This document shows, in pieces, positions 14,735 to 60,716 of a DNA stretch of 64,000 nt (positions are counted from its first letter, which is position 1; every line of letters starts with the position of its first letter). The notes beneath the pieces are model-generated. The model worked only from the letters and a program-made list of their open reading frames with translations, was not told the origin of the DNA and made no database searches. Origin of the DNA: Escherichia phage vB_EcoM_VR26. The stretch lies in the sequence record NC_028957.1. One strand, given 5' to 3'. The position numbers and the translations under genes are program-made.

Positions 14735-15698
14735 ACTTGTCCCAGAACTTCATGTCTACCTTATCAGGCATACCGTTCTTGGCCGCCCAGACGGCATTGG
14801 TTTCGACTTCATCGACGATTGCTTCAAGTTCAGCTTGTACATCTTTAAAAGCGTGTAGGCCTTGTTTGATTTCAAGGATAAATGGAGCCGTACGTAAAGG
14901 ATATTGAAGGTCACCGGTCATATAAATTTCCTTCAGCTGATATCCAGCTCGATAAGCATGACTCAATGCTTTCCAGTCAATACCTTCATTCGCTTCGGCC
15001 TTACGAGCGCGTTCACCATATTCGGCATCAAGTTTATTCAGAGATTGCTTAAGCTCGATTAATGACAAAGTAGTTTGGTATTTGCGACCGAGAACAGTAT
15101 AAAACGTTTGAGGACCGGTTTTCTCATGGTTATGGAACACCCATTCGCAAAATTCGTTCTCTGGAAGACGATGCTTAATATCTTCAACTTTAGTACGACG
15201 TTGTTTAGTCGTACCATCTTCTTGGTAGTCAACCCACTGTTCAGGAATCTGGTTAACAATTGCCAGTACACCACGTAAAGCAGCCAGTCTAGAACCTTTA
15301 ACACCATATTTTGAAGCTTGCTTACGGACATACCCCAAATATGCTTTCATGTTGGTCGTATAGAACCGTGAACGGTTGTCTTGGATAAATTTCCATACAT
15401 CTGGTAAATCGGATTTGACTACCAGGTTAGCCGGAGTGTGAATCATGTCCAGAGCAACAGTTTCACCTTCAGCCGCCAGTTTAAAGAAATATTTCAGGCT
15501 ATAAAGCTCGTGGTCAACATCGTCTTTAGTGTTTTTGGATGCCGTGTTATTCGTGTTCAAGTTTGTATGATTCATAGCCGTACCTAACAGAATGTCACGT
15601 GGGTGTGGAACAAAGATTTCCTTAAAATCGACATCAGATTCAGGAGTACTTGTTCCATAAAGATGTGAGCCAAAATAGCCCTTCATAACTGTTCTCAT
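14688..15698 (-). CDS. Predicted polymerase-beta-fold nucleotidyltransferase (336 aa)
   Basis: N-terminal GSHLYGTSTPESDVD fits the hG[GS]x9-13DxD motif; T4 has an uncharacterised nucleotidyltransferase-like ORF in the nrdC region. Confidence 0.6.
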   Translation of the reverse strand: MRTVMKGYFGSHLYGTSTPESDVDFKEIFVPHPRDILLGTAMNHTNLNTNNTASKNTKDDVDHELYSLKYFFKLAAEGETVALDMIHTPANLVVKSDLPDVWKFIQDNRSRFYTTNMKAYLGYVRKQASKYGVKGSRLAALRGVLAIVNQIPEQWVDYQEDGTTKQRRTKVEDIKHRLPENEFCEWVFHNHEKTGPQTFYTVLGRKYQTTLSLIELKQSLNKLDAEYGERARKAEANEGIDWKALSHAYRAGYQLKEIYMTGDLQYPLRTAPFILEIKQGLHAFKDVQAELEAIVDEVETNAVWAAKNGMPDKVDMKFWDKFVEEVYLDNHNSYYR

Positions 15699-16462
15699 TA
15701 TTCGCCTCTTTCATAGTCTTCAATAAATTGCATAATTAAACGTTGATAGTTAGATTTACGGTATCCTAATTTACTAATATGAGTACCAAAAGCTCCACGC
15801 TTAGGCCTATTTAATTTAACCCATAAAGAATAAAGCAAATCATAATCTTGCCAATGTTTTCCTATTCTTTGCTTTGCTTTAGAAGCGTCGGACTGCCTCT
15901 TTTTAGTCTCTGGATTATTTAGAGATTTCTTAACAGCATTTGAATGTCTTTCTCTAACACCCGGGCGTTTAAATGCTTCTTTAACAGATTTAGAAATTTT
16001 CTCTTTAACTTCAGGACGGTTTTGAGCTTCTATTTGAGCCGCCGACATTTTATCTTTTATTTCGGATAGACTCATAGTTATAGAACGTTTATTTCTATAC
16101 TCTTTGGTCTTCCATAGTTCTTTCATCGTATTTGAATGAATTTCTGAAAATTTTTCTCTAACTAATTGGTAGCCCCTAGAAGTTAGTTTAAGATTTCTTC
16201 CTAGAGAATCCTCGCCGAAGTTATAAAATGACCACCAGGCATAAATTAATCCAGAAGAATCAGAATGAATTCTGGCTAGAAGCCAGTGTGCTATAAAATG
16301 TTCTCTGGCCGTCAGCAGAACTAAATTATTAGGTTCATCACTCCCACCAATACATGATGGGAGTATATGATGGGACTCTGTATAAAAATTTAATTTGGAT
16401 TTGTCTAATCCTCTGAATTTACCTCTTTGGATTAGACTATCATAAAGCTTTGTATAATTCAT
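15698..16462 (-). CDS. HNH homing endonuclease (Mob-like)
   Basis: ESHHILPSCIGGSDEPNNLVLLTAREHFIAHW HNH core; start placed at internal MNYTKLYDSL (track extends to 16501). Confidence 0.75.
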   Translation of the reverse strand: MNYTKLYDSLIQRGKFRGLDKSKLNFYTESHHILPSCIGGSDEPNNLVLLTAREHFIAHWLLARIHSDSSGLIYAWWSFYNFGEDSLGRNLKLTSRGYQLVREKFSEIHSNTMKELWKTKEYRNKRSITMSLSEIKDKMSAAQIEAQNRPEVKEKISKSVKEAFKRPGVRERHSNAVKKSLNNPETKKRQSDASKAKQRIGKHWQDYDLLYSLWVKLNRPKRGAFGTHISKLGYRKSNYQRLIMQFIEDYERGE

Positions 16463-16464
16463 TA

Positions 16465-16920
16465 TTATTTTGTTTTGTCCTCGAAGTGAATTACCGGACA
16501 CATCTTAGATTTACGAGCTTTAATGTATTGGACGACAAGGTTTTCTTTAATTTCCTTTCCTTCACGCTCAGCTTTAATTCGTTTCCATTCTTTTTCTTCT
16601 TTATGTAAATCGTACCAGGTCCATAAATTCATTAGACCATACATTAAACCAAATGCTACCGCCAGAATAAGAGCCAGTGTAGATAGCCCCAAAATAAAAC
16701 CTAACCCCAAACCAACAGGAGTACTTAATACAAAGAACTGCTCCAATACACCAGCACCTGCAACAGTTAAGGCGAAAATAGTACTACCTGCAACCACAGA
16801 AAAAACAAAACAGGCCCATACAATTTTCCAGAAGTAAGCACACAATGAGTGTGGTCGAGAATGACGGTCATAAAAACGGTCGTGTAATTTAGCGTGCCAA
16901 GCGTTTGTATTGATAATCAT
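16465..16920 (-). CDS. hypothetical membrane protein (151 aa)
   Basis: Multiple hydrophobic segments. Confidence 0.5.
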   Translation of the reverse strand: MIINTNAWHAKLHDRFYDRHSRPHSLCAYFWKIVWACFVFSVVAGSTIFALTVAGAGVLEQFFVLSTPVGLGLGFILGLSTLALILAVAFGLMYGLMNLWTWYDLHKEEKEWKRIKAEREGKEIKENLVVQYIKARKSKMCPVIHFEDKTK

Positions 16921-39942: not shown

Positions 39943-40767
39943 TTATGAATTTCTCCATACTTTCTGGGAAGAGAATCTTTTGCCTTTCGACATAAATTGT
40001 TGCAATGGAAGCATAACAACGTTTGCCCAGTCGCTGGGCTTGATTTCAGTGATAGTACCTTTTATATTACCAGGTATATATGCTTTAATCATCTGGTCAG
40101 CCCCTTTAAATCCCTTCACCTTTGACCAATCAATCTTCAGATGAGTCTTGTTCGTAATCGTAGGAGTATTAGCATATTGCTTAAGCAGTTCCTCAAGGAA
40201 CTCTTGACGTGCCTTCGGTGGAATATAGTGCAAGTTCAAACCATACATCAAATTGTGCTTACCCAACCCAAGATAAATGATTAACGGGTATTTGTCCCAG
40301 TACGGAAGAGTATCCTTATGCTTTGCATCATAGATATAAGCATAAATCTTACCTGGTTGAGGTTTAGCCGTTACGTGCCCTCTGACAGCTTTCTTAATTG
40401 TCTCTGCGAACCATCTGGCAGATTTGGTGTTGCTTGCAGCGCCTTCGTTAGCAATCTTATCTCTTATGCTCTTTCTAAAGCTATTCACCATTATTAGCTG
40501 GCGTTCAGCCTTCGTAAGTTTACCAGCAGGTTTCTTTTTGAGTTTGGATACTTTATAAGCAGTCTGAATTCTCGAATGATATCTTGACATGCTTTTGGTA
40601 AAGGTTGAATAGTTGATTCCTTTCTCTTCAGCAAACTTTTTCGAGGTCATTCCCTTTTCTTTTGCTGTATAAAATTCAACCCCTATCTCAACCCATTGTT
40701 GTTCGGATTTACTGGGTTTCGGACCCGGTTTATCTGCAGATTCATTGATAAATGTAAAAATACTCAT
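39943..40767 (-). CDS. 2: DNA end-protector protein gp2
   Basis: Start at [25 protein letters not shown] (ATGA overlap with gp4 stop); 274 aa as in T4. Confidence 0.85.
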
Positions 40768-41213
40768 CCTTTCCATCCTAATTTTTTCAGTGAGTTTTCA
40801 GTGATTATCCTAAACGTTATACCCATTTTATCTGCCGTAGATTGTGCAGCTTTCCATTTGTCCGAGTTAACAGCCCAGGTATACATCTCGTTAATAAATC
40901 TCTTTTTGCTCGCAGCGGTATTATTAACAGGTTTGGTTGGTGGTCTTGTTTCTTTTAATGGCTTAACTTCGAAAAAGAACTGTTGTCCTGTATCAAACTT
41001 AACCCAGAAATCCATATAATACCTGCGCTTTTTACCATCGGCATTGCTAAAGTAAGGGATGATAACAGTCTCAGAACCCCATTGAACAACGTTCGGATGG
41101 TTGTCGAGCCATCTCATAAGCCAGGCCTCCCAGCTTGACCGGTATTGTATTTTCTTCCAGTCGCCCTTATATTTTTCTATATTAGTGGGCTTAAATTTCC
41201 CGGAGTATGCCAT
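40764..41213 (-). CDS. 4: Head completion protein gp4
   Basis: 149 aa; [29 protein letters not shown]...[14 protein letters not shown] matches T4 gp4 from memory. Confidence 0.9.
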
Positions 41214-41242
41214 ATAGCCTCCTAATAAATATTGATATACTT

Positions 41243-41253
41243 ATTTATAAATG
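41243..41253. promoter_or_regulatory. Divergent overlapping late promoters (gene 4 leftward, gene 53 rightward)
   Basis: ttaTTTATAaatgg: minus strand reads TATAAATA, plus strand TATAAATG. Confidence 0.5.
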
Positions 41254-41261
41254 GAGGCTTT

Positions 41262-41864
41262 ATGCTTTTTTCATTTTTTAACCCAATTGATTATGATGCT
41301 AAAACAATCAGAAAAAACCCTGCATCATTGACGAAAGAAGACGTCTTAAGCATTCCAATGACTGACATTTTCAGAAATTATCGTGCTTACTTTGATAAGG
41401 TCGCGGTCAATTATACACCAAAAACCTATTACATTGCCGGAGCTCCACGCCCGGAAGAATTAGCATATCAGCTATACGGCAACACTCAGCTCTATTGGGT
41501 TCTCCTTATGCTCAATGATATCTATGACCCGTATTATGGTTGGCTTTGTACCCAAGAAGCATCGTATCAAGCATCAATTCAGAAATATTCAAATGTCGGG
41601 GGCAATCAGGTCCTTTATCATGTGAACGAAAACGGTGAGAAGTTCTGGAACCTTGTTTCTTATCCTGATAATCCATACACCTGGTACGATAAAGGCGATA
41701 AAAACAAATTATATCCGCAATACGAAGGTCCATTAGCCGCAGTGGATATCTATGAAGATGCTATTCGCAAAAATGAATACAAACGAGAAATAAAGATAAT
41801 CGACCCTAACGATATCGAATCTTTTATTTCGGCGCTTATTCGTGAGATGGAGAAGTCGCTATGA
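41262..41864 (+). CDS. 53: Baseplate wedge protein gp53
   Basis: MLFSFFNPIDYDAKT...PMTDIFRNYR...YHVNENGEKF matches T4 gp53; ATG 41262 after SD GGAGG (track TTG start at 41232 overlaps the promoter). Confidence 0.9.
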   Translation: MLFSFFNPIDYDAKTIRKNPASLTKEDVLSIPMTDIFRNYRAYFDKVAVNYTPKTYYIAGAPRPEELAYQLYGNTQLYWVLLMLNDIYDPYYGWLCTQEASYQASIQKYSNVGGNQVLYHVNENGEKFWNLVSYPDNPYTWYDKGDKNKLYPQYEGPLAAVDIYEDAIRKNEYKREIKIIDPNDIESFISALIREMEKSL

Positions 41865-43603
41865 TTAATATGTCAGATAGTGTAAGCTGGTTCGTCGGTG
41901 TGGTTGAAGACCGAATGGACCCACTGCAACAAGGCCGTGTGCGCGTTCGCGTGTGGGGGATGCATCCTTACGAAAAATCACAGGGACCTGTTAAAGGTAT
42001 AAGAACCGAAGACTTGCCATGGATGTCTGTGCTGATGCCAACATCATCTGCGTCGGTTTCTGGAATTCAAACTGCAATGACTGGTATGGTACCAGGGACT
42101 CAGGTATATGGTCACTTTTTAGACAAGTGGAAGCTCAACGGTCTTGTCATTGGTACATACGGTTCAGCCTCAAGACAAAAAGCAAATCCTAACGAAGGCT
42201 TCTCTGACCCTACGGGACAATACCCGCTTTATGTTGGTAATGATGCTGCGGCGCTTAACCGGGGCGGTGAAGTCGGTTATGATGCCACTTCAAACGTAAT
42301 CCAAGATTCAAACCTTGATTTAGGTATTAACCCCGATGGTCTTGATTTAAGTCAGGTTAAGCCAGACGATAACCCTAATTTCACAATTGAAAATATGCTT
42401 CACCGTGATGAGGGACTTCGTCTGAAAGTATATTGGGACACCGAAGGTTATCCGACTGTCGGGATTGGCCACCTTATTACACCACAACCTATTAGAGATA
42501 TGAATCAGATAAACAAAATATTATCTAATCAAATAGGCCGTGAAGTTAAAGGTAACCCTGGTGCAATATCAATGGACGAGGCTTCTGCATTATTCCAGGA
42601 AGACCTTAAGAAAGTACAAAGTGATATAGGTAGGCATAGTGTTGTAGGTCCGGTTTACAATAAAGAAAACCGTTCGAGACAAATGGCTCTTGAAAACATG
42701 GCTTTCCAAATGGGATTAGGTGGATTGGCTAAATTCCGTGGAATGCTTGGTGCAATGTTAATAGGCGATTATAAAAAGGCATTTGAGGAAGCTCGTAATT
42801 CAGTATGGTTTAACCAAACTAAAGGGCGCGCGTCAAGGGTATCAATGATTATCCTCACCGGTAATATGGAATCATATGGTATTATGGCTCCTAAAGAAAG
42901 ATCATTTAATGGTCGAATGTACCGAATGATTGAAACATTTAGTACCAAGGCTGGGGAAGACCCGGCTGACCCGTGGACCCCAGAAGATACAAGGATTCTG
43001 TTTAAAGAACCAGAATCAAGTTACAAAGGCGAATATCCTTACATACAGACAATGCAAACCGAAGGCGGTCACATTCAGGAATTCGATAACACTCCTGGGC
43101 AAGAACGTTATCGACTGATTCACCCGACTGGCTCCTACGAGGAAGTTGCACCAGATGGTCGTAAGACTTCGAAGACAGTAGCCGATGGTTATTATATGAC
43201 CCAGGGTGATTCGAGTACTTATGTCGGTGGTAATAATAAAGTCAACGTTGGTGGTGATGAAACCTATTACAATATGGCTAACGTTCGCAGACAAACCGAT
43301 GGAAACGAAAGCATTCATATCAGAGGGAATGAAACCAAAACTATCGAAGGTGACGGTACAATTATTGTCAAAGGTAATGTAAGTATTCTGGTCGAAGGTA
43401 ATGCTGAAATAACTGTTAAAGGTGATGCAAAAACTCTTGTCGAAGGTAACCATGATTATACAGTAAATGGTAATGTCAAATGGTCCGTTAATGGAAACGT
43501 TGATATGACTGTAGCTGGCAACTGGTCCGAGACTATGGCTTCAATGAGTTCTATTGCATCTGGACAATATACTATTGATGGTTCGAGGATTGACATTGGC
43601 TAA
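41861..43603 (+). CDS. 5: Baseplate hub / cell-puncturing spike with lysozyme domain gp5
   Basis: 580 aa; VGVVEDRMDPLQQGRVRVRVWGMHP OB-fold, lysozyme core RDEGLRLKVYWDTEGYPTVGIGHLI, C-terminal VxGxxxxxx beta-helix repeats. Confidence 0.95.
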   Translation: MINMSDSVSWFVGVVEDRMDPLQQGRVRVRVWGMHPYEKSQGPVKGIRTEDLPWMSVLMPTSSASVSGIQTAMTGMVPGTQVYGHFLDKWKLNGLVIGTYGSASRQKANPNEGFSDPTGQYPLYVGNDAAALNRGGEVGYDATSNVIQDSNLDLGINPDGLDLSQVKPDDNPNFTIENMLHRDEGLRLKVYWDTEGYPTVGIGHLITPQPIRDMNQINKILSNQIGREVKGNPGAISMDEASALFQEDLKKVQSDIGRHSVVGPVYNKENRSRQMALENMAFQMGLGGLAKFRGMLGAMLIGDYKKAFEEARNSVWFNQTKGRASRVSMIILTGNMESYGIMAPKERSFNGRMYRMIETFSTKAGEDPADPWTPEDTRILFKEPESSYKGEYPYIQTMQTEGGHIQEFDNTPGQERYRLIHPTGSYEEVAPDGRKTSKTVADGYYMTQGDSSTYVGGNNKVNVGGDETYYNMANVRRQTDGNESIHIRGNETKTIEGDGTIIVKGNVSILVEGNAEITVKGDAKTLVEGNHDYTVNGNVKWSVNGNVDMTVAGNWSETMASMSSIASGQYTIDGSRIDIG

Positions 43604-43637
43604 TATAATCCCAATGAGCACTGATTTAGGAGACTCC

Positions 43638-44135
43638 ATGGAAGGAGCTTCAATCGATGTTACGTTTACCGCTCAATTAGAAACAAACGAAACATTAGTC
43701 GAAATAAATATAACTGAATATGAGGCCACCCCTGGCGTTAATGTTGAGGGCAATCATCTTTATGGTGTTTATGAATCCGTGTTCGGATTTGCAGATGATG
43801 CGCTTAAATATCGGCTTAACGATGAATTCAAAACTGCTGCTTCATGGGAAGAACTTCCTGTGGATAAGAGTACTCAATTGTATCTCTGGAGGGCCCCAGC
43901 GAGCCTCCAGAAGGTCTTTTCATACACAGTAACCCTAACCTATGACTTTCAAGAAGAGAGCTCTGGAGGAGACACAGGGAACTCTGGTGGTAGTAATAGT
44001 CGGGCAGGCAACGAGACAGACCCACCTCCGGCCCCAGTAAGAAAGACAATGACAAAAGTTTACACAAAAACTATCGTCGGTAACTGGAGCCGATGGGCAG
44101 ATAAATTGCGTTCATACGTATACGCGAGGGATTAA
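43638..44135 (+). CDS. hypothetical protein downstream of gene 5 (5.1-like position)
   Basis: Track ORF starts at 43554 inside gene 5; ATG 43638 has SD AGGAG (alternative ATG 43614). Confidence 0.55.
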   Translation: MEGASIDVTFTAQLETNETLVEINITEYEATPGVNVEGNHLYGVYESVFGFADDALKYRLNDEFKTAASWEELPVDKSTQLYLWRAPASLQKVFSYTVTLTYDFQEESSGGDTGNSGGSNSRAGNETDPPPAPVRKTMTKVYTKTIVGNWSRWADKLRSYVYARD

Positions 44136-44429
44136 ATGGCTGGATTAAGTTTTAATCAATGTGTTACAGCAGGTCACGAAGCATGGCCACCGACTGTAAT
44201 CAATGCAACTCAAGGTAAAGTATTCACCGGGGGAATTCCTGTGTTAGTTGCCGGGGACCCTATTACCGAACATACCGAAATTAAAAAACCATATGAAACC
44301 CACGGTGGAGTAACACAACCAAGAACTCCGAAGGTATTTGTTACCGGTAAGAAAGCTGTTCAAATGGCGGACCCGATTTCATGTGGTGATACTGTGGCTC
44401 AAGCTTCAGGAAAGGTGTTCATAAAATGA
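44136..44429 (+). CDS. 5.4: PAAR-repeat spike-tip protein gp5.4
   Basis: 97 aa, same length and position as T4 gp5.4; Gly/Val-rich PAAR-like sequence. Confidence 0.8.
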
Positions 44430-45103
44430 ACAAAGAATTTAATTTTGTATATGTAACTACAAACCTAGAAAATGGTAAAAAGTATATAGGCAAACATTCT
44501 ACTGATGATATGTTTGATGGATATTACGGTACAGGGGAGCTTATCAAAAAAGCTTATAAAAAATATGGAAAGGATTTGTTTGAGACAAAAATAATAAAAT
44601 TTTTTGATACTGAAGATGAGGCTTACGACTACGAAGAATTTTTAGTAGACGAATCTATAATTTATGATGATAGATATTATAATATAGATTTGGGTGGCAA
44701 AGGAAGTATGCGAGGAAGAAAGCATAAGGAATCTTCAAAGAAGCAAATATCAGACAAAATGAAGGGTAGGTCAAAGCCACCACGAAGTAAAGAATATATT
44801 GAAAATTTTGAAAAAGCTATGGCCAAAAGGAGAAAACCTAAGTCACCTCCTAAACCGAGGGTTTTTGTTAGAGGAGAAGAACATCCTTTATATAAAAGAC
44901 CCAGACCGCAATCTGTTATTGACCTATGTAAACTTAATAATAGAAAACACCCCATATGGCAATCATACGATATTTTATTCAAATTATGGAAAGAAAATGA
45001 TAAGCCAGGTTGGAGAAAAATGACCCGATTAGCCATTGAAAACGGATTTCCAAATACGGCTTATGATAAAATGATAAAACAATTTAAACAGGATTCAGAA
45101 TAA
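44426..45103 (+). CDS. GIY-YIG homing endonuclease (Seg-like) inserted between 5.4 and 6
   Basis: [25 protein letters not shown] motif, [23 protein letters not shown]3-like basic tail; ATGA and TAATG coupling to both neighbours. Confidence 0.85.
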
Positions 45104-47049
45104 TGGCTACTCCTACGAATTACCAATTAACAAGAACCGTTAACGCTATCCCAAAAGTATTTGTGGGAGCTACGTTTGAAGAAATTAAAAAGAACATCAT
45201 CGACTGGTTATCAAGCCAGGATGAATTTAAGGATTATGATTTCGTAGGTTCGCGAATGAACATCCTGATTGATATGCTTGCATATAATACATTGTATATG
45301 CAGCAGTTTGCTAATACAGCGGTTTATGAAACATTCATCGGAACTGCAAACTTAAGGTCTTCGGTTGTTCAGGCGGCACAGGATAATGGCTATCTTCCAT
45401 CTTCTCGCTCAGCTGCAAAGACTTCTGTTATGTTGACGTGTTCCCATGCTCTGCAGCCATCGAATATTGAAATACCTCGTGGAACTAAGTTCCTGGCTTA
45501 TGCTCGGGATACATCAGCTGACCCTTATGTTTTTGTTACCACGGAAAATGTTATCGCAGTTAAAGATATTAACAACCAATACCTTCCGATTGTATCTCTG
45601 GCACAAGGTCGTATTATTCGTACAGAACTTTTATATGACCCGAAACAACCTATTCTTATTCGTGACCCGGATATCGACCGCAAAGAAGTTAAGTTATACG
45701 TGAACGGCGTTGAGTGGGTTGACTGGACGAACAAATCAATGGTTCACGCTGGTTCGACTTCCACCATATTTTATATGCGTGAAACAATCGATGGTTATAC
45801 GGAATTTTTCTTCGGTGAAGGTGAATCTACTAAATCTGTAGCCGGCGGCGTTATGGAAGCCAACTATATTGGCGGTCTTAAACCTGTGCAAGATTCGACA
45901 ATTGTTATTGAGTATCTTCGTACATCAGGAGCGGATGCTAACGGTGCAGTAGATTTCAGTTATGCTGATACGTTGTCTTATATCACAGTGGATAAGATTA
46001 CCGAAAACTACAATGACGACCCTGATTATGTCGGTGCCGATGGTGGTGGTGACCAGGAAGATATCGAACGAATCCGTGAACTGGCTGTTGTTAAACGTGA
46101 AGCGCAGATGCGTGCTGTCACCGGAACGGATTATGATACCTTCGTATCTGAAAGATTCGGCTCAATCGTGCAAGCCGTACAGACGTTTACGGACGCCAAT
46201 AAACCTGGGTATGCGTTTATATCAGTTAAGCCTAAATCGGGCCTATATCTCACTGCAGTGCAGCGTGAGGACATACAGAACTACCTGGCGGATTTCAACG
46301 TATCAACAATTACACCATCGGTTATTTCTCCAGATTATTTGTTCCTTAGACATAATATCAAAGTATCTTATGCACTGAACAAATTACAAGAATCTGAACA
46401 ATGGTTGCAAGCGCAAATCATTAATCAAATTGACCGTTATTATATCGATGAAGTCGAAATCTTTAACAGAAGTTTTGCTAAGTCAAAAATGCTCACATAT
46501 GTTGATAATACTGACCATAGTATTCTTGGTTCGTCTGCAACTATTTCGATGGTGCGTGAAGTCCTGAACTTCTTTAAGACACCAGAATCCGGCATTAAAT
46601 ACTATAACCAGTATGGCAACCGTTCCGTCGAATCAAGTGAATTTGAATTTGTTCCGACCACAGGTGAAGCCTATAACGTTCGCATTGTTGCAACTGATAA
46701 AGATTCTCGTGGTGATGGTAAAATGGTAATTGGTCCATTCCGTCAGGGCGATGTTATCGAAAACGTAAACATCCAGCCTTATCTACAAGATGACTTTAAT
46801 AAAATGGAAGCTCCGGCTGACCAAACAGTTTATTACGCAATCGGCGAAATTGACTATTATTCTGATTATATTTTTTGGGATATCGCTGCGATTGGATTGA
46901 CCTCCGACCGCTTTGAGGTTCAATCAATCGAACTTTATGCAAGTCCTAACCAAGATAATATATACACGCAAGATGGTTCGCTGATTGTATTTGAGAATGA
47001 CCTTCGTCCCCAATATACAAAGATTGACCTCGAACCAATTACACTATAA
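45103..47049 (+). CDS. 6: Baseplate wedge protein gp6
   Basis: 648 aa; [17 protein letters not shown]... colinear with T4 gp6 from memory. Confidence 0.95.
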   Translation: MATPTNYQLTRTVNAIPKVFVGATFEEIKKNIIDWLSSQDEFKDYDFVGSRMNILIDMLAYNTLYMQQFANTAVYETFIGTANLRSSVVQAAQDNGYLPSSRSAAKTSVMLTCSHALQPSNIEIPRGTKFLAYARDTSADPYVFVTTENVIAVKDINNQYLPIVSLAQGRIIRTELLYDPKQPILIRDPDIDRKEVKLYVNGVEWVDWTNKSMVHAGSTSTIFYMRETIDGYTEFFFGEGESTKSVAGGVMEANYIGGLKPVQDSTIVIEYLRTSGADANGAVDFSYADTLSYITVDKITENYNDDPDYVGADGGGDQEDIERIRELAVVKREAQMRAVTGTDYDTFVSERFGSIVQAVQTFTDANKPGYAFISVKPKSGLYLTAVQREDIQNYLADFNVSTITPSVISPDYLFLRHNIKVSYALNKLQESEQWLQAQIINQIDRYYIDEVEIFNRSFAKSKMLTYVDNTDHSILGSSATISMVREVLNFFKTPESGIKYYNQYGNRSVESSEFEFVPTTGEAYNVRIVATDKDSRGDGKMVIGPFRQGDVIENVNIQPYLQDDFNKMEAPADQTVYYAIGEIDYYSDYIFWDIAAIGLTSDRFEVQSIELYASPNQDNIYTQDGSLIVFENDLRPQYTKIDLEPITL

Positions 47050-47068
47050 GCCTCTTCGGAGGCTTTTT
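47049..47068 (+). terminator. Hairpin with UUCG loop between genes 6 and 7
   Basis: AGCCTC-ttcg-GAGGCT followed by TTTT then SD of gene 7. Confidence 0.4.
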
Positions 47069-47077
47069 AAGGAAACC

Positions 47078-50000
47078 ATGATGAGTGTTAAAGCCCCTTA
47101 TGTAACCAGCTTACGGATTGATAAACTATCTGCTAACCAGGTTAGCATAAAATGGGATAATGTTGGCGCCAACTTTTATTATTTTGTTGAGATTGCTCCG
47201 ACAAAAGAAAATGGTGTTGCTATTCCAGAAGAAAATCTGTTATGGAGGAATTTAGGTTATACTCCAGACAATGAATGGTTCGAACAAGATTTTATTCGTC
47301 CAGTATCATTTTACAAAATGCGTGTTGCCGTTGCAGCAATGGGTTTTGAGCAATCTGATTGGGTTTATACCGAAGAATTTGAAACCTTTGCAACTAACGC
47401 ATACACATTTGAACACATGCGTGAGTTTACATTAACAAATAAATTCATTGAAGAAAAATTCGCAAACAACAACCAGGCTTATATTAACTTTAATAATGAT
47501 GCGATTACGGCATCGTTGATGTCCGAAGATTTTAGCTTTACTCCTGCATATTCTCATTTGTCTTCAATTTCAAACTATGTATTAAAGGAAGACCAATATC
47601 ACGAAATTCAGGGTAGCATTCAGCCAGTGTGTAACGATGTTAATCGTACAATGATTGCTGAACTTGGTGGCGTGTTGTATTTGTTTGAACGATTCCAGAC
47701 AACTGTCAAAGTCTCCAATGATAAAGGACAGAACTGGTATTATGTGAAATTGTTTAATGACCGTATCGGCAACCCCGTATCGCGCACAATTTATTATCAA
47801 TCAGATACGACAACTTATGTGCTTGGGTATGACCGAATTTTTTACGGTCGTAAATCAAGTGACGTAAGATGGTCTGCTGATGATGTTCGATTCAGTTCTC
47901 AGGATATAACATTTGCAAAAATTGGTTCGGATATCAATCTCGGATTCGATATTGAAATATTTGGCACGTATGCAAGACTCCCTGCTTATATCTCAACAAT
48001 TGCTGAAGCAATTACTACGACTGATTCCATGATTTACGTTTCTGGCCGTGACCGCGTGTACAAAGCTAAATCTTCTGATGCTCCGATTGATAATGACCCT
48101 AACTCTCCAACGTTTGGTGAAAAATTGTTTGAAGCTGGTTTTAGCACAATAAGCGGCAACCCAAAAGCTGTTTGTTATAAGATGGATTCAATTGATGGTG
48201 AAGTGTTTGCATTAATCACAGGTGAAGTAAAAGAAGAACGTCAAGACCCGACTAAACCTGAAAACGTTGTCGATTCACTATCGAAGGGCGTTTATAAATT
48301 AAATACTGATACCGATACATGGACACGAGTTTTTGGTAACACAGAAGACGAACGTCGCCGTATTGAACATGGTTACACAAGCATGTCAACTGATGGAATT
48401 GAACTTTTTATCAGTTCAAGTAATTTCCATTATTCCGTGGAACCAGATACTGCATTACCTGAAAAATACCCTGATGAAGTTAATAGCGCAGTCAAATATG
48501 TGTACGACGAACAATGGATACATGACAAGCATTATTTGATGATGAGTTTTAGGTCAAATAAAGATTCAGGCTGGGAAGAATTTAAACCAGGTCGAATGAC
48601 TTATTACGCTGAACCATTTTTCAACTGGTCAAGACGCGATGATACTCGTTGTTGGATTACGACTTCTGACCGAGCTCTGGTTGTGTACAACGATATGTTG
48701 TATCAAAAAATTATCGATACATTCGGCGGTTCATCCCCGGAACGTATTGTGCATGAATATTGGAACAAAGGTCAAGTAACAGTAACAGCGCCTAACATCG
48801 AATTTAATGGCTTTAAAAAATATGCTTCCGGTATTATGCTGCACAAAAATACTGGGGAACTTATTGGTTATTTTGAATTCGACTATCGTATGCGTGATGA
48901 AGTTCGCCTTATCTGGAAACCAAAAGAAATTATGTTCACTGCTGAATTACAAAACCAGGAACACGATATTCCATGGACTCCTGATAATGATAATCAGGAA
49001 AAAGACCCGGACTTGCGCCCGTTGTTAACTAAAATGGTACCGGATAGTTACTTACTACAAGATTCCAACTTTGAAAAATTCTGTGAATACTATTTGCAGT
49101 TTATCAGTGATGGTTCTGGTACGTATTACAACAACCTTTTAAATCTTATTCGCAACCAATATCCTCGTGAAGAAGATGCATGGGAATACTTGTGGAGTGA
49201 GATGTACAAAAGAAACATTTATTTGTCAAAAACCAAGCGTGATGAAGTTGTAAGGTTTTTCGAAGCTCGCCAATCAGATTTCTGGGCAACCAAGGGGACT
49301 GAAGCGTCTTACAAATTCTTGTTTAAATTGTTGTACAATGAAGACGTTGAAATTGATATCGAATCCAAGAATGGAACCGAATACGACATAATTGTTGAAT
49401 CTGATAATATCAGTGAAGATATCGTAGGGCAAACCATTTACACCCCAACTGGCCGTAGTAACGTAACTTATATGGAGCGTGACTATAAACAGGGTAAATT
49501 GAGATGGCGTATAACAATCCATAACTTGCTTGGACGCTTTATTGTCGGTCAAGAAATTAAATCCGAACGAACTTCTTTCGAAGGTATGATTGTTCAGGGT
49601 GTTCGCGGTAAAGAATTGTTAAGCAACAATATTGACTATATCAACCGAAATCGTTCTTATTATGTGATGACTATTAAATCAAGTCTGCCTACCTCCCGTT
49701 ATCGCAATGACGTTTTGCGTTTTGTGCATCCGGTTGGATTTGGATTTGTTGGAATTACATTATTGACAATGTTTGTTAACGCGGGTTTGTCATTAAAACA
49801 CACTGAGACAATTATCAACAAATTGAACAACTATCGTTGGTCGTCTGGTATTCCGTCTGAATGGTGTGACCGTATCGCAGTTATCGGTGTTGATAGTAAT
49901 ATTGAGAAAAACCCAGTCACTGGTGAAGCAGTATATAATATTGCTCCTAATGCTGGATTGCCGTTCCCATTACCGGCCGATTACGATGCAGAAAACGATT

Positions 50001-58361: not shown

Positions 58362-59300
58362 ATGGCAACTGAATCATACAACCCGAAACAATTAAAAGAT
58401 GCAATCCTTCGTCGTCTTGGTGCTCCAATCACGAATATCGAAGTTACGACCGACCAAGTCTATGATTGCATCCAGCGTGCATTAGAATTATACGGTGAAT
58501 ATCATTATAATGGATATAACAAAGGTTATCAGGCTTTTTATATCGGTCATGATGAAGTTTCACAACAGAAATTCCGCGATGGTGTTTTCGATTTAAAAGG
58601 ACGTAATATTTTTGCAGTAACGCAGATTATTCGTACTAACGTCGGTTCATTAACTTCAATGGACGGACAAGCCACATATCCATGGTTTACAGATTTCGTT
58701 CTGGGCCTTGCCGGGATTAACGGTGGGATGGGTAGCTCGTGTAATAGCTTTGGTCCAAATGCTTTTGGTGCAGACCTTGGTTATTTTACACAGCTTATGC
58801 AATATCGTTCAATGATGCAAGACCTGATGGTTCCGCTTCCGGATTACTGGTATAACGATGATACCGAACAACTTAAAATTATGGGCAACTTCCGTCAGGG
58901 GGATGTGATTGTAATTGAAGTTTATACCAAATCGTATAACGGTGTGGATTCAATGGTTGGCAATACAGCTGGTTATGGTTTTGCCTCGGCTGATTGTGAT
59001 AATCCGTGGAATGCCGGTGCACAGTGGGATAACCCGGCGCGCAGAATAAGCGGTATGAGAGCTGGTGAGGACCTTGGACTTCAAGATGGTGCATACAACA
59101 ACCGTTGGGTGAAAGACTATGCCACGGCGCTTGTTAAGGAAGTTAACGGCAACGTATTGGCTAAACACCAAGGGATGATGATGCCAGGTGGAGTTACGGT
59201 CGATGGTGTTCGTTTAATCGAAGAAGCTCGTATGGAAAAAGAACGTCTCCGCGAAGAACTTGACCTGCTGGATGCACCGACTCCTATATTGGTGGGCTAA
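58362..59300 (+). CDS. 13: Neck protein gp13
   Basis: 312 aa; [39 protein letters not shown] matches T4 gp13. Confidence 0.95.
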
Positions 59301-59935
59301 TGGCTACATATTATAGACTTTATGTGTCGACATTTGAAACATCTAATGGGGTAATGGTGTATGGCGGTAAACGTCATTCACCATATGAAGATTTTAAAGC
59401 AGATAGTTATTTTGGGTCGGGTACTATTGTTAAACGAGCTAAACAAAAATATGGAAGAAAATGTTTAGTCGATATTACCTGGTCTAAACCTTTTGAATCC
59501 CCTGCTCTATTAAAGGAAGCCGAGGCTTTACTAGTCAGTGAACTTTTAGAAAGTTTTGATAATTGTGCAAATTTACACCCAACAGGGGGAGGTGGCCCGG
59601 AAGGTTATAGTCGTCCAGAAGATTCCCCTGCTTTTGGTAAAAAGAGAACAGCAGAATCAAGAAAACGAATGTCGGAAGCCGCAAAACAAAGGGAATGGTC
59701 CGAAGAGGGATTAAAACGTCGTAAAGAGGCAACAGCTCGAATGTGGATTGATTTTAAGGACCGACATCCTGATTTTTCTGATGATAAAAATCCGGCCGCA
59801 CGTAAAATTATTACCGGCGACCTAGAATTTTGTACCGGAAGAAAATGTGCAGAATATTATTCGATAACTCCGGCTGCAGTCATTTACAGATGTAAAAGTA
59901 CAGCCGAAAAATGGAAATTATGGAATTATGCGTAA
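59300..59935 (+). CDS. GIY-YIG-like (Seg-like, possibly degenerate) homing endonuclease inserted between 13 and 14
   Basis: [22 protein letters not shown] and [18 protein letters not shown] align with the Seg-like ORF at 44426; NUMOD3-like [13 protein letters not shown]. Confidence 0.6.
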
Positions 59936-60716
59936 TTCTTATGATGCAAGCTTATTCGCCCGACTTGAAGATGGAACCGGGTATGACAATACAAACTCGT
60001 CAGAGATACTCAACCAATATGTAAACTTTATGCATCATGAAAATACCCAGACTTTAGCCGATGTTATTGTTGCTGAAAGTATTCAGATGCGCGGAATGTC
60101 TCTCTATTACATCCCAAGACAATTCGTTAAACCAGATTTGTTATTCGGCGAAGACCTCCAGAGCAAATTTGATAAAGCATGGAAATTTGCTGGTTATCTG
60201 GATACATTCGATGCATATCAGGGTGATGGTTCCATCTTCAGTAAATTTGGTATGACTGTGAATGATGAAATCACAGTGTCGATTAACCCTAATCTGTTTA
60301 AACATCAATGTAATGGAACCGAACCTATTGCCGGGGATTTGATTTATTTCCCTCTCGATAACAGTCTGTTCGAAATAACCTGGGTACAGCCTTATGACCC
60401 ATTCTATCAGGTAGGTCAAAACGCCATCCGTAAAATCACCGCGAGCAAATACATTTACTCCGGAGAAGAGCTTAAACCTGAATTGCAACGAAATGAAGGT
60501 ATTAATATTCCAGAATTCAGTGAGCTCGATTTGCAACCAATCCACAATATCGATGGCCTTACAGATATCAGTGATATCCCTTATGCAGAATCTGATGAGA
60601 TTAACGCAGAAGCAGCTGAATATGTTAAACCATATTTTGTGCAGAATGGTCGTGGGATTGAGTCTCCTCCTAAGGCAAAACAGGATAGCTTTGACGACAG
60701 TTTCTTTGATGAATAA
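59928..60716 (+). CDS. 14: Neck protein gp14
   Basis: 262 aa; [26 protein letters not shown]...[24 protein letters not shown] matches T4 gp14. Confidence 0.9.

Follow-up and report, generated by a model that had tools for sequence, protein, structure and literature searches.

A free-standing Seg-type GIY-YIG endonuclease gene at the 5.4/6 junction of Escherichia phage vB_EcoM_VR26 and its apparent recent movement between phage genera

The 64,000-nucleotide (nt) stretch of Escherichia phage vB_EcoM_VR26 analyzed here (NC_028957.1; hereafter the window) carries, between baseplate genes 5.4 and 6, an open reading frame (ORF) of 225 amino acids (aa) that sequence comparison identifies as a free-standing Seg-type GIY-YIG nuclease gene. 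This gene, which we refer to as the homing endonuclease gene (HEG), is identical at 678 of 678 nt to a gene at the same junction of CLB_P2, a phage of the genus Dhakavirus. The window phage is a Gaprivervirus, and its closest relatives, TH15 and VR7, both lack the HEG. Our comparisons indicate that the HEG moved horizontally between the genera very recently, across about 25% sequence divergence, and make it highly probable that it is an active or very recently active homing endonuclease gene that recently homed into the 5.4/6 junction of a TH15-like Gaprivervirus.

An identity island shared between genera

Alignment of the window with CLB_P2 revealed an island of 795 nt without a single difference, set in flanks that diverge by about 25%. 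Identity extends beyond the HEG by 26 nt on the left and 91 nt on the right, and elsewhere the two genomes are 65-85% identical. The right-hand 91 nt carry no information, as gene 6 begins with 93-99 nt that are the same in all five Dhaka- and Gapriverviruses; the 99-nt run that the Dhakavirus VR5 shares there with VR7 is the longest between the genera in an 8-kb alignment, the runner-up being 55 nt. On the left, the window changes from VR7-type to CLB_P2-type sequence between 44399 and 44405, and the tract that leads from there into the HEG differs from TH15 and VR7 at six positions (44405, 44409, 44410, 44414, 44417, and 44420), resulting in an S94G substitution in gp5.4. Two of these six bases are shared by VR5 with the HEG-bearing alleles. 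The elements that bear on this comparison are the following, all on the + strand:

44426..45103, +: the HEG (Seg-type GIY-YIG, free-standing), with its TAA stop at 45101-45103; assigned from PHROG 314, SegE_GIY-YIG, SegA, and the identity to CLB_P2
44400..44425, +: 26-nt HEG-linked tract at the 3' end of gene 5.4; identical to CLB_P2 and traveling with the HEG
44358..44392, +: conserved 35-nt stretch (ADPISCGDT codons of 5.4), candidate left homology arm; exact run between CLB_P2 and TH15
45102..45200, +: start of gene 6, candidate right homology arm and recognition sequence; exact 99-nt run between VR5 and VR7, 93 nt between CLB_P2 and TH15

The junction without the HEG is compact. In TH15, VR7, VR5, and T4, only 8 nt separate the TAG stop codon of 5.4 from the ATG with which gene 6 starts, and the HEG is precisely absent. 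Downstream of the HEG, the window is 99-100% identical to Escherichia virus TH15. A first-pass annotation of the window, made from the sequence alone, had proposed that a homing endonuclease invaded the structural module at this point. That proposal is supported by the presence and absence of the gene at one junction in three Tevenvirinae genera and by the identity island shared with CLB_P2. Nor is the gene universal: it is precisely missing from TH15 and VR7, and among 412 phage records matching the region only two, both of CLB_P2, cover the HEG and hold a near-identical copy.

Sites that separate both HEG-bearing genomes from all three HEG-less genomes are few, numbering 12 in 7,694 aligned columns. 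Four of them lie at 44405-44420, adjoining the HEG; another, 44994, is an alignment artefact within the insert, and the rest are scattered singles. The linked tract is present in four HEG-bearing backbones: the window, CLB_P2, L011, and L017. L011 has a VR7-like backbone (97.7% identical upstream), carries the HEG with two synonymous differences and keeps the linked tract. L017, a Logan contig (SRR32022501), has a Dhakavirus-like backbone that matches CLB_P2 at 89% upstream; it carries a HEG of 96.8% identity and keeps the 26-nt tract with one difference. A 1-nt deletion in a C-run of the L017 gene (equivalent to 44849) shifts the frame after about residue 141. The C-terminal domain is complete in the shifted frame, where it matches an alternative-frame ORF of the window (44799..45023), and the frameshift marks either a copy that has begun to decay or a mistake in assembly. 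The HEG copies of the two Dhakavirus-type backbones differ by about 3%. A transfer from Dhakavirus to Gaprivervirus is weakly suggested by the sequences, and we do not claim this direction.

Directly to the left of the junction, 17 VR7-type informative sites in a row (44276-44369) adjoin the HEG in a backbone that is otherwise TH15-type downstream, a pattern that may reflect co-conversion. The wider surroundings are strongly asymmetric around the HEG. Upstream (40600..44400), TH15-type and VR7-type informative sites alternate every few hundred nt and include a block of 78 VR7-type sites at 43288-43522, and downstream (45300..49000) about 700 informative sites are nearly uniformly TH15-type. 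A patch in the lysozyme part of gene 5 (42481..42877) is, in the window and TH15, 91-97% identical to CLB_P2 and VR5 and 73-76% identical to VR7, an apparent case of inter-genus recombination within gene 5. The stretch next to this patch (42878-42977) is divergent in every comparison (58-70%).

Database searches retrieved 25 homologs of the HEG protein. Its close family is small, consisting of one cluster at 100% and a few members at 57-85% identity, and all homologs of 57-100% identity are encoded between the PAAR/5.4 gene and gene 6. The same junction is occupied in the Winklervirus Serratia phages X20 and LC53 (64-66% identity) and on the metagenomic T4-like contigs L006, L007, and L008-L010. 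A scan of IMG/VR with the HEG protein returned no relatives. Winklervirus shows an independent polymorphism of its own: CHI14, CBH8, Vettismorki, Virsaitis27, Kc304, and Gravdalen have flanks about 98% identical to those of X20 and LC53 and lack the HEG; their HEG-less junction is a TAATG overlap of 5.4 and 6 (CHI14, Vettismorki). The presence or absence of homing endonuclease genes has been described as the main variation inside this genus (LC53 paper, PMC10132071). Where X20 differs from its HEG-less relatives, the changes are again concentrated in the final ~28 nt of 5.4, GTY to GTG and TTT to TTC among them. As judged from its coding sequences, the HEG lineage is under purifying selection: the proportion of nonsynonymous differences (pN) is far below that of synonymous differences (pS) in all HEG pairs, and the ratio of the corresponding substitution rates (dN/dS) is 0.12 between the X20 and L007 genes, the sole pair with unsaturated dS (1.02).

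Two of the metagenomic contigs hold an additional gene in this interval. L008 (2140..2754) and L009 (1756..2370) encode an extra 204-aa NUMOD3 protein between 5.1 and 5.4, a segC-like position, and two endonuclease genes flank the 97-aa PAAR gene on these contigs. Public annotation of the region is uneven. The gp5.4 protein of CLB_P2 is labeled 'phospholipase' in its GenBank record (OL770107; L001 3536..3829) though it is a PAAR protein, the TH15 record is without annotation, and the CHI14 record is without a coding sequence for 5.4; we regard these as annotation gaps and not as biology.

The predicted protein and its setting in the baseplate operon

Both the ORF list and the sequence itself place an ATG-initiated ORF of 225 aa at 44426..45103 on the + strand. 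The first-pass annotation had described the same ORF with a GIY-YIG motif, and the motif it quoted corresponds to residues 7-25. The overlaps it had noted on both sides are likewise visible in the sequence: the ATG of the HEG overlaps the TGA of gene 5.4 (ATGA), and its TAA overlaps the ATG of gene 6 (TAATG). The two neighboring genes are:

44136..44429, +: gene 5.4, left neighbor, encoding the PAAR spike-tip protein (T4 gp5.4), 97 aa; PF05488 2.1e-10, PHROG 281 1.3e-36
45103..47049, +: gene 6, right neighbor, encoding the baseplate wedge protein, 648 aa; five gp6 Pfam domains (E 1e-35 to 1e-45), PHROG 219 7e-205

A gp5.1-like gene (PHROG 1168) and gp5 (Gp5_OB, lysozyme, and Gp5_C domains) lie further upstream. 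The GC content is 0.28-0.35 over the HEG vs 0.40-0.47 in the flanks, and the HEG forms one of only two dips below 0.31 in the 64-kb window. The other low-GC island, with a GC content of about 0.30 at 34801-35300, coincides with a 219-aa ORF at 34680..35339 (- strand) that matches the T5orf172/MUG113 domain (E 4e-8 and 1e-5) and PHROG 5032 (1.7e-59) and may be another nuclease-type mobile gene.

Several lines of comparison agree with the Seg-like GIY-YIG identity proposed in the first-pass annotation. The protein matches PHROG 314 'homing endonuclease' (4.8e-43) over residues 1-220, and PF19835 SegE_GIY-YIG at 26.1 bits vs a cutoff of 25; the general GIY-YIG model scores just below its own cutoff. 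NCBIfam TIGR01453 'group I intron endonuclease' aligns to residues 7-140 (8.8e-12). By BLASTP, the protein is 33% identical to T4 SegA (residues 3-221 to 7-215, E 3e-31) and 37% identical to T4 SegC across the catalytic domain (E 2e-22). Taken together, the GIY-YIG signal is marginal in curated general models and strong in the phage-specific library, as far as profile searches can tell. When the protein is aligned with SegA, SegC, and homologs from the databases, Y9 (FVY = 'GIY'), Y20/G22 (YIG), H24, E70, and Y85/N86 are invariant; over 23 sequences, conservation of the catalytic motif residues is complete or no lower than 90%. A match to PHROG 447 'NAD synthetase' (2e-11) was discarded as a functional assignment and taken as a mislabeled GIY-YIG family.

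An AlphaFold2 model, for which the alignment was made from database homologs only, had a mean predicted local distance difference test score (pLDDT) of 79.9 and divides the protein into three parts:

44426..44710, +: N-terminal GIY-YIG catalytic domain, about residues 1-95; pLDDT 81-95, beta-beta-alpha-beta-alpha topology, Foldseek matches, invariant residues
44711..44779, +: basic helical linker with one NUMOD3-like motif, residues 96-118; PF07460 E 0.063, 13.7 bits
44909..45100, +: C-terminal helical domain, about residues 162-225, presumed DNA-binding; four helices, pLDDT 65-85, aligning to the SegA C-terminus

Residues 93-99 form a low-confidence or disordered hinge in the model. The top three Foldseek matches in the PDB are all the catalytic domain of I-TevI (1mk0 and 1ln0_A/B; probability 0.99-1.00), with a template modeling (TM) score of 0.62-0.65 on the target, E values of just 0.02-0.05, and nothing else meaningful among the matches. 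A PDB search by sequence alone found nothing at E <= 1, so that the link to I-TevI comes from the fold search only. The 'NUMOD-like tail' of the first-pass annotation holds in part: one stretch resembles NUMOD3, with a score of 13.7 bits that falls short of the PF07460 threshold of 20.4, and what follows it is the SegA-homologous helical domain. Several HEG homologs have precomputed PF07460 matches, and a profile search of the HEG protein gave no NUMOD1 match.

The C-terminal domain also resembles (30% identity, E 1e-6) the C-terminal ~60 aa of a 267-aa HNH-type homing endonuclease encoded at 15698..16501 on the - strand, and this homology therefore suggests that one presumed DNA-binding module occurs on two nuclease types in the same genome. 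The HNH-type ORF matches PHROG 655 (2.9e-55) and carries the motif HHILPSCIGGSDEPNNLVLLTAREHFIAH; a Pfam search of it at 0.01 gave no match. The window encodes a second Seg-like protein as well. The 211-aa ORF at 59300..59935 (+ strand) matches PHROG 314 (3.9e-30) and, weakly, NUMOD3, and is 28% identical to the 5.4/6 HEG. It lies between the neck genes gp13 (58362..59300) and gp14 (59928..60716), overlapping both, is absent in TH15 and VR7, and is present at about 93% identity in SP18 (as 'segC'), vB_EcoM_RZ, TH40, and others.

No exact match to the T4 late-promoter consensus TATAAATA was found on the + strand between 41.2 and 51.2 kb, and sigma-70-like and terminator-like matches in or by the HEG were at or below shuffle expectation. 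Because no promoter or terminator of its own was found, the HEG is probably a promoter-less cassette read from the late baseplate operon. Promoter-less seg cassettes transcribed by read-through are known, namely segC, segF, and segG (PMC2988022). Two short elements may serve translation:

44412..44417, +: Shine-Dalgarno (SD)-like AAGGTG, 8 nt upstream of the HEG ATG; read from the sequence, role putative
45090..45093, +: AGGA in the last HEG codons (AAA CAG GAT, KQD), putative gene 6 ribosome-binding site; read from the sequence, role putative

The AAGGTG is created by the HEG-linked substitutions, insert-less alleles having AAAGTC at 44412-44417. The AGGA lies 9 nt upstream of the gene 6 ATG, in place of TAGGAAATAAA of the insert-less allele, whose putative ribosome-binding element for gene 6 is TAGGAAATAAAATG, and either AAACAGGAT or AAAGAGGAC is kept at the AGGA position in all HEG lineages. 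A perfect 7-bp hairpin (44416..44432, UGUUCAU-AAA-AUGAACA) encloses the HEG start codon, with two HEG-linked substitutions in its 5' arm. We do not take this hairpin as evidence of regulation, given shuffle z scores of -0.89 and +0.52 and a comparable structure in L006 only among the other lineages. RNA structure was absent at the start of gene 6 (z +0.87).

A proposed homing cycle and its alternatives

We propose the following course of events for a HEG that is active or was so very recently. The HEG would be transcribed with the late baseplate operon, and its translation would be coupled to that of 5.4 by the ATGA overlap together with the SD-like AAGGTG carried on the cassette. If an insert-less relative infects the same cell, the C-terminal domain would bind conserved sequence at the 5.4/6 junction, and the GIY-YIG domain would cut both strands of the HEG-less allele at the junction. 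T4-type recombination-dependent repair would copy the HEG from the HEG-bearing genome, with the 35-nt stretch at 44358-44392 and the roughly 95-nt stretch at 45102-45200 as homology arms. Genomes with the HEG would be protected by the split site, by the altered 26-nt tract, or by both. As the cassette would give gene 6 a new ribosome-binding site and the TAATG overlap, the essential baseplate operon would be left undisturbed. The 795-nt identity island, the linked tract in four backbones, and the clustering of HEG-associated sites are compatible with one-way gene conversion that carries flanking sequence along.

The location of the cut is suggested by what the HEG-bearing genomes have in common. 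The only local sites that they share and that are absent in HEG-less genomes are those at 44405-44420 and the split junction. Every HEG-bearing genome has to be immune to the enzyme. Because these genomes follow their own backbones outside 44400-45194, any local cis immunity would have to sit in the 26-nt tract or in the split junction, and on this ground we predict cleavage no more than a few tens of bp away from the 5.4/6 junction (CAAGCCTCATCAAAAGTCTTTATAAAATAGGAAATAAAATGGCTACTCC). Ribosome binding for the HEG (AAGGTG), rather than immunity, could be an equally good reason for the tract to be linked.

More tentatively, the HEG lineage might be an intron-less analogue of an intron-encoded endonuclease, one that recognizes the sequence formed by the 5.4 stop and the start of gene 6 and whose insertion splits its own target, packaged as a compact cassette that is free of polar effects and brings ribosome-binding sites for itself and for gene 6. 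We consider this possible and would not yet favor it. Such a cassette design would explain the cross-genus transfer with a co-converted flank of just ~26 nt and, if true, would provide a defined minimal natural system for cross-genus homing and for the origin of target-site immunity.

A number of observations weigh against a recently homing, active HEG. The gene is rare, occurring in one isolate among the 412 matching records, which is unexpected for a very efficient drive. Cleavage by free-standing T4 endonucleases usually occurs hundreds of bp away from the gene that encodes them (PMC2988022), so that a cut at the junction is our prediction and not a rule of the family; the endonuclease activity and the target site of the HEG protein are likewise predicted. 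The run of 17 VR7-type sites next to the HEG could stem from unrelated recombination because the sequence from 40.6 to 44.4 kb is mosaic throughout. Among the profiles, the SegE_GIY-YIG model aligns to residues 2-24 only, the general GIY-YIG model PF01541 scores 22.0 bits at a cutoff of 22.6, and TIGR01453 scores 45.5, below its curated cutoff of 56.05. The Seg-type alignment also holds no invariant Arg equivalent to R27 of I-TevI, and this is not an argument against activity because the active SegA and SegC share that feature.

The HEG could instead have been moved by ordinary homologous or homeologous recombination during co-infection, without any contribution of its own nuclease, as a passenger that is possibly inactive. 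T4-like genomes are strongly mosaic in this region: upstream, TH15- and VR7-type patches follow one another at intervals of a few hundred nt, and gene 5 contains a patch of Dhakavirus-like sequence. The HEG is also bordered by the two best-conserved stretches of its surroundings, where crossover would be favored, and the L017 copy has a frameshift. Passive movement is nonetheless unlikely in our estimate, as the transferred block is almost exactly the ORF, which it exceeds by 26 nt on the left and by no more than 91 nt on the right, and a single gene lineage occupies one junction in three genera and several metagenomic backbones. Its catalytic residues are conserved, with a dN/dS of about 0.12, and its paralogs SegA and SegC are active homing enzymes (PMC2988022).

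Slightly less probable again is a nuclease kept mainly for the benefit of the phage, its targets being competing relatives (marker exclusion) or other DNA, for example that of satellites. Seg enzymes do exclude T2 markers in crosses of T4 with T2 (PMC2988022), domains related to the HEG take part in phage-satellite conflicts (PMC10448857), and the HEG lineage shows purifying selection. The gene is sporadic, however; almost all of the Gaprivervirus and Dhakavirus genomes that have been sequenced lack it, and for this reason it does not appear to be needed by the phage. At the molecular level this explanation does not differ from homing, and both could apply together. Divergent homologs (57-66% identity) at the same site in distant T4-like phages would accord with an old, vertically inherited baseplate-region gene that was lost many times and never recently inserted, an explanation that we consider effectively excluded by the absence of differences in 795 nt between genera with flanks ~25% divergent, and that is also at odds with a GC content ~10 points below the flanks, with intact, compact insert-less junctions (TAG + 8 nt + ATG, or TAATG) that hold no remnant, and with the lack of any structural-protein homology found for the HEG.

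Recent homing is accordingly the account we favor, and it bears on phage variation more broadly. Among T4-like phages, some of which serve in therapy, free-standing homing endonucleases rank as a main source of both variation and marker exclusion. The HEG explains some of what sets the window phage apart from its near-twin TH15. The 5.4/6 junction is a newly defined HEG insertion site, for which natural pairs with and without the gene are available in three genera, and the movement across genera would have involved homology arms of just ~35 and ~95 nt. The locus is thus a convenient, well-delimited test case for target-site prediction, co-conversion length, and the avoidance of polar effects on neighboring genes.

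Comparison with known endonucleases

Two close relatives of the HEG already carry database names that derive from automatic annotation only. The 'homing endonuclease' of CLB_P2 (UNI73014.1) is a 100% identical protein at the same junction, and the 'putative endonuclease segE' of X20 (YP_010092310.1) is a 64% identical one, also at the same junction. Literature searches on CLB_P2, X20/CHI14, and segC returned no description of the 5.4/6 element, its site, or its activity.

With I-TevI, the HEG protein shares the catalytic fold, as predicted from its model, and a linker with a NUMOD3-like motif. The cut is predicted near the insertion point in the case of the HEG, and intron-encoded enzymes cut within 25 bp of the insertion. 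Unlike I-TevI, the HEG lies outside any intron, and its product is only ~20% identical, has no evident zinc finger, and scores below the TIGR01453 cutoff.

The first-pass annotation had noted that T4 has no gene at this position. This is correct for the 5.4/6 spacer itself, which in T4 spans 8 nt only, and it does not extend to the wider interval, in which the GIY-YIG gene segC lies ~450 bp upstream. The gene 5-6 interval is an already known HEG neighborhood because T4 segC is located there. Like the HEG, SegC is encoded in the gene 5-6 interval of the baseplate cluster, in its case between 5.1 and 5.3, by a promoter-less cassette that uses an upstream promoter (PMC2988022). However, its junction is ~450 bp upstream of that of the HEG, and the protein has only 140 aa and is without the C-terminal helical domain; segC is not the ortholog of the HEG.

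The closest characterized homolog of the HEG protein is T4 SegA, with 33% identity over the full length. Both proteins consist of three parts, a GIY-YIG domain, a basic linker, and a C-terminal helical domain (...LAIE.GFPN..Y..M...F), and both are encoded by free-standing genes between conserved genes. SegA is encoded between uvsX and beta-gt, and its cleavage in uvsX has been demonstrated (PMC2988022), whereas the HEG is inserted between 5.4 and 6 and its target presumably differs; only about one third of the residues are shared. By sequence comparison, none of the T4 seg genes is orthologous to the HEG. The element is of an ordinary type and embodies no new principle, and it offers an unusually clean example of a jump between phage genera.

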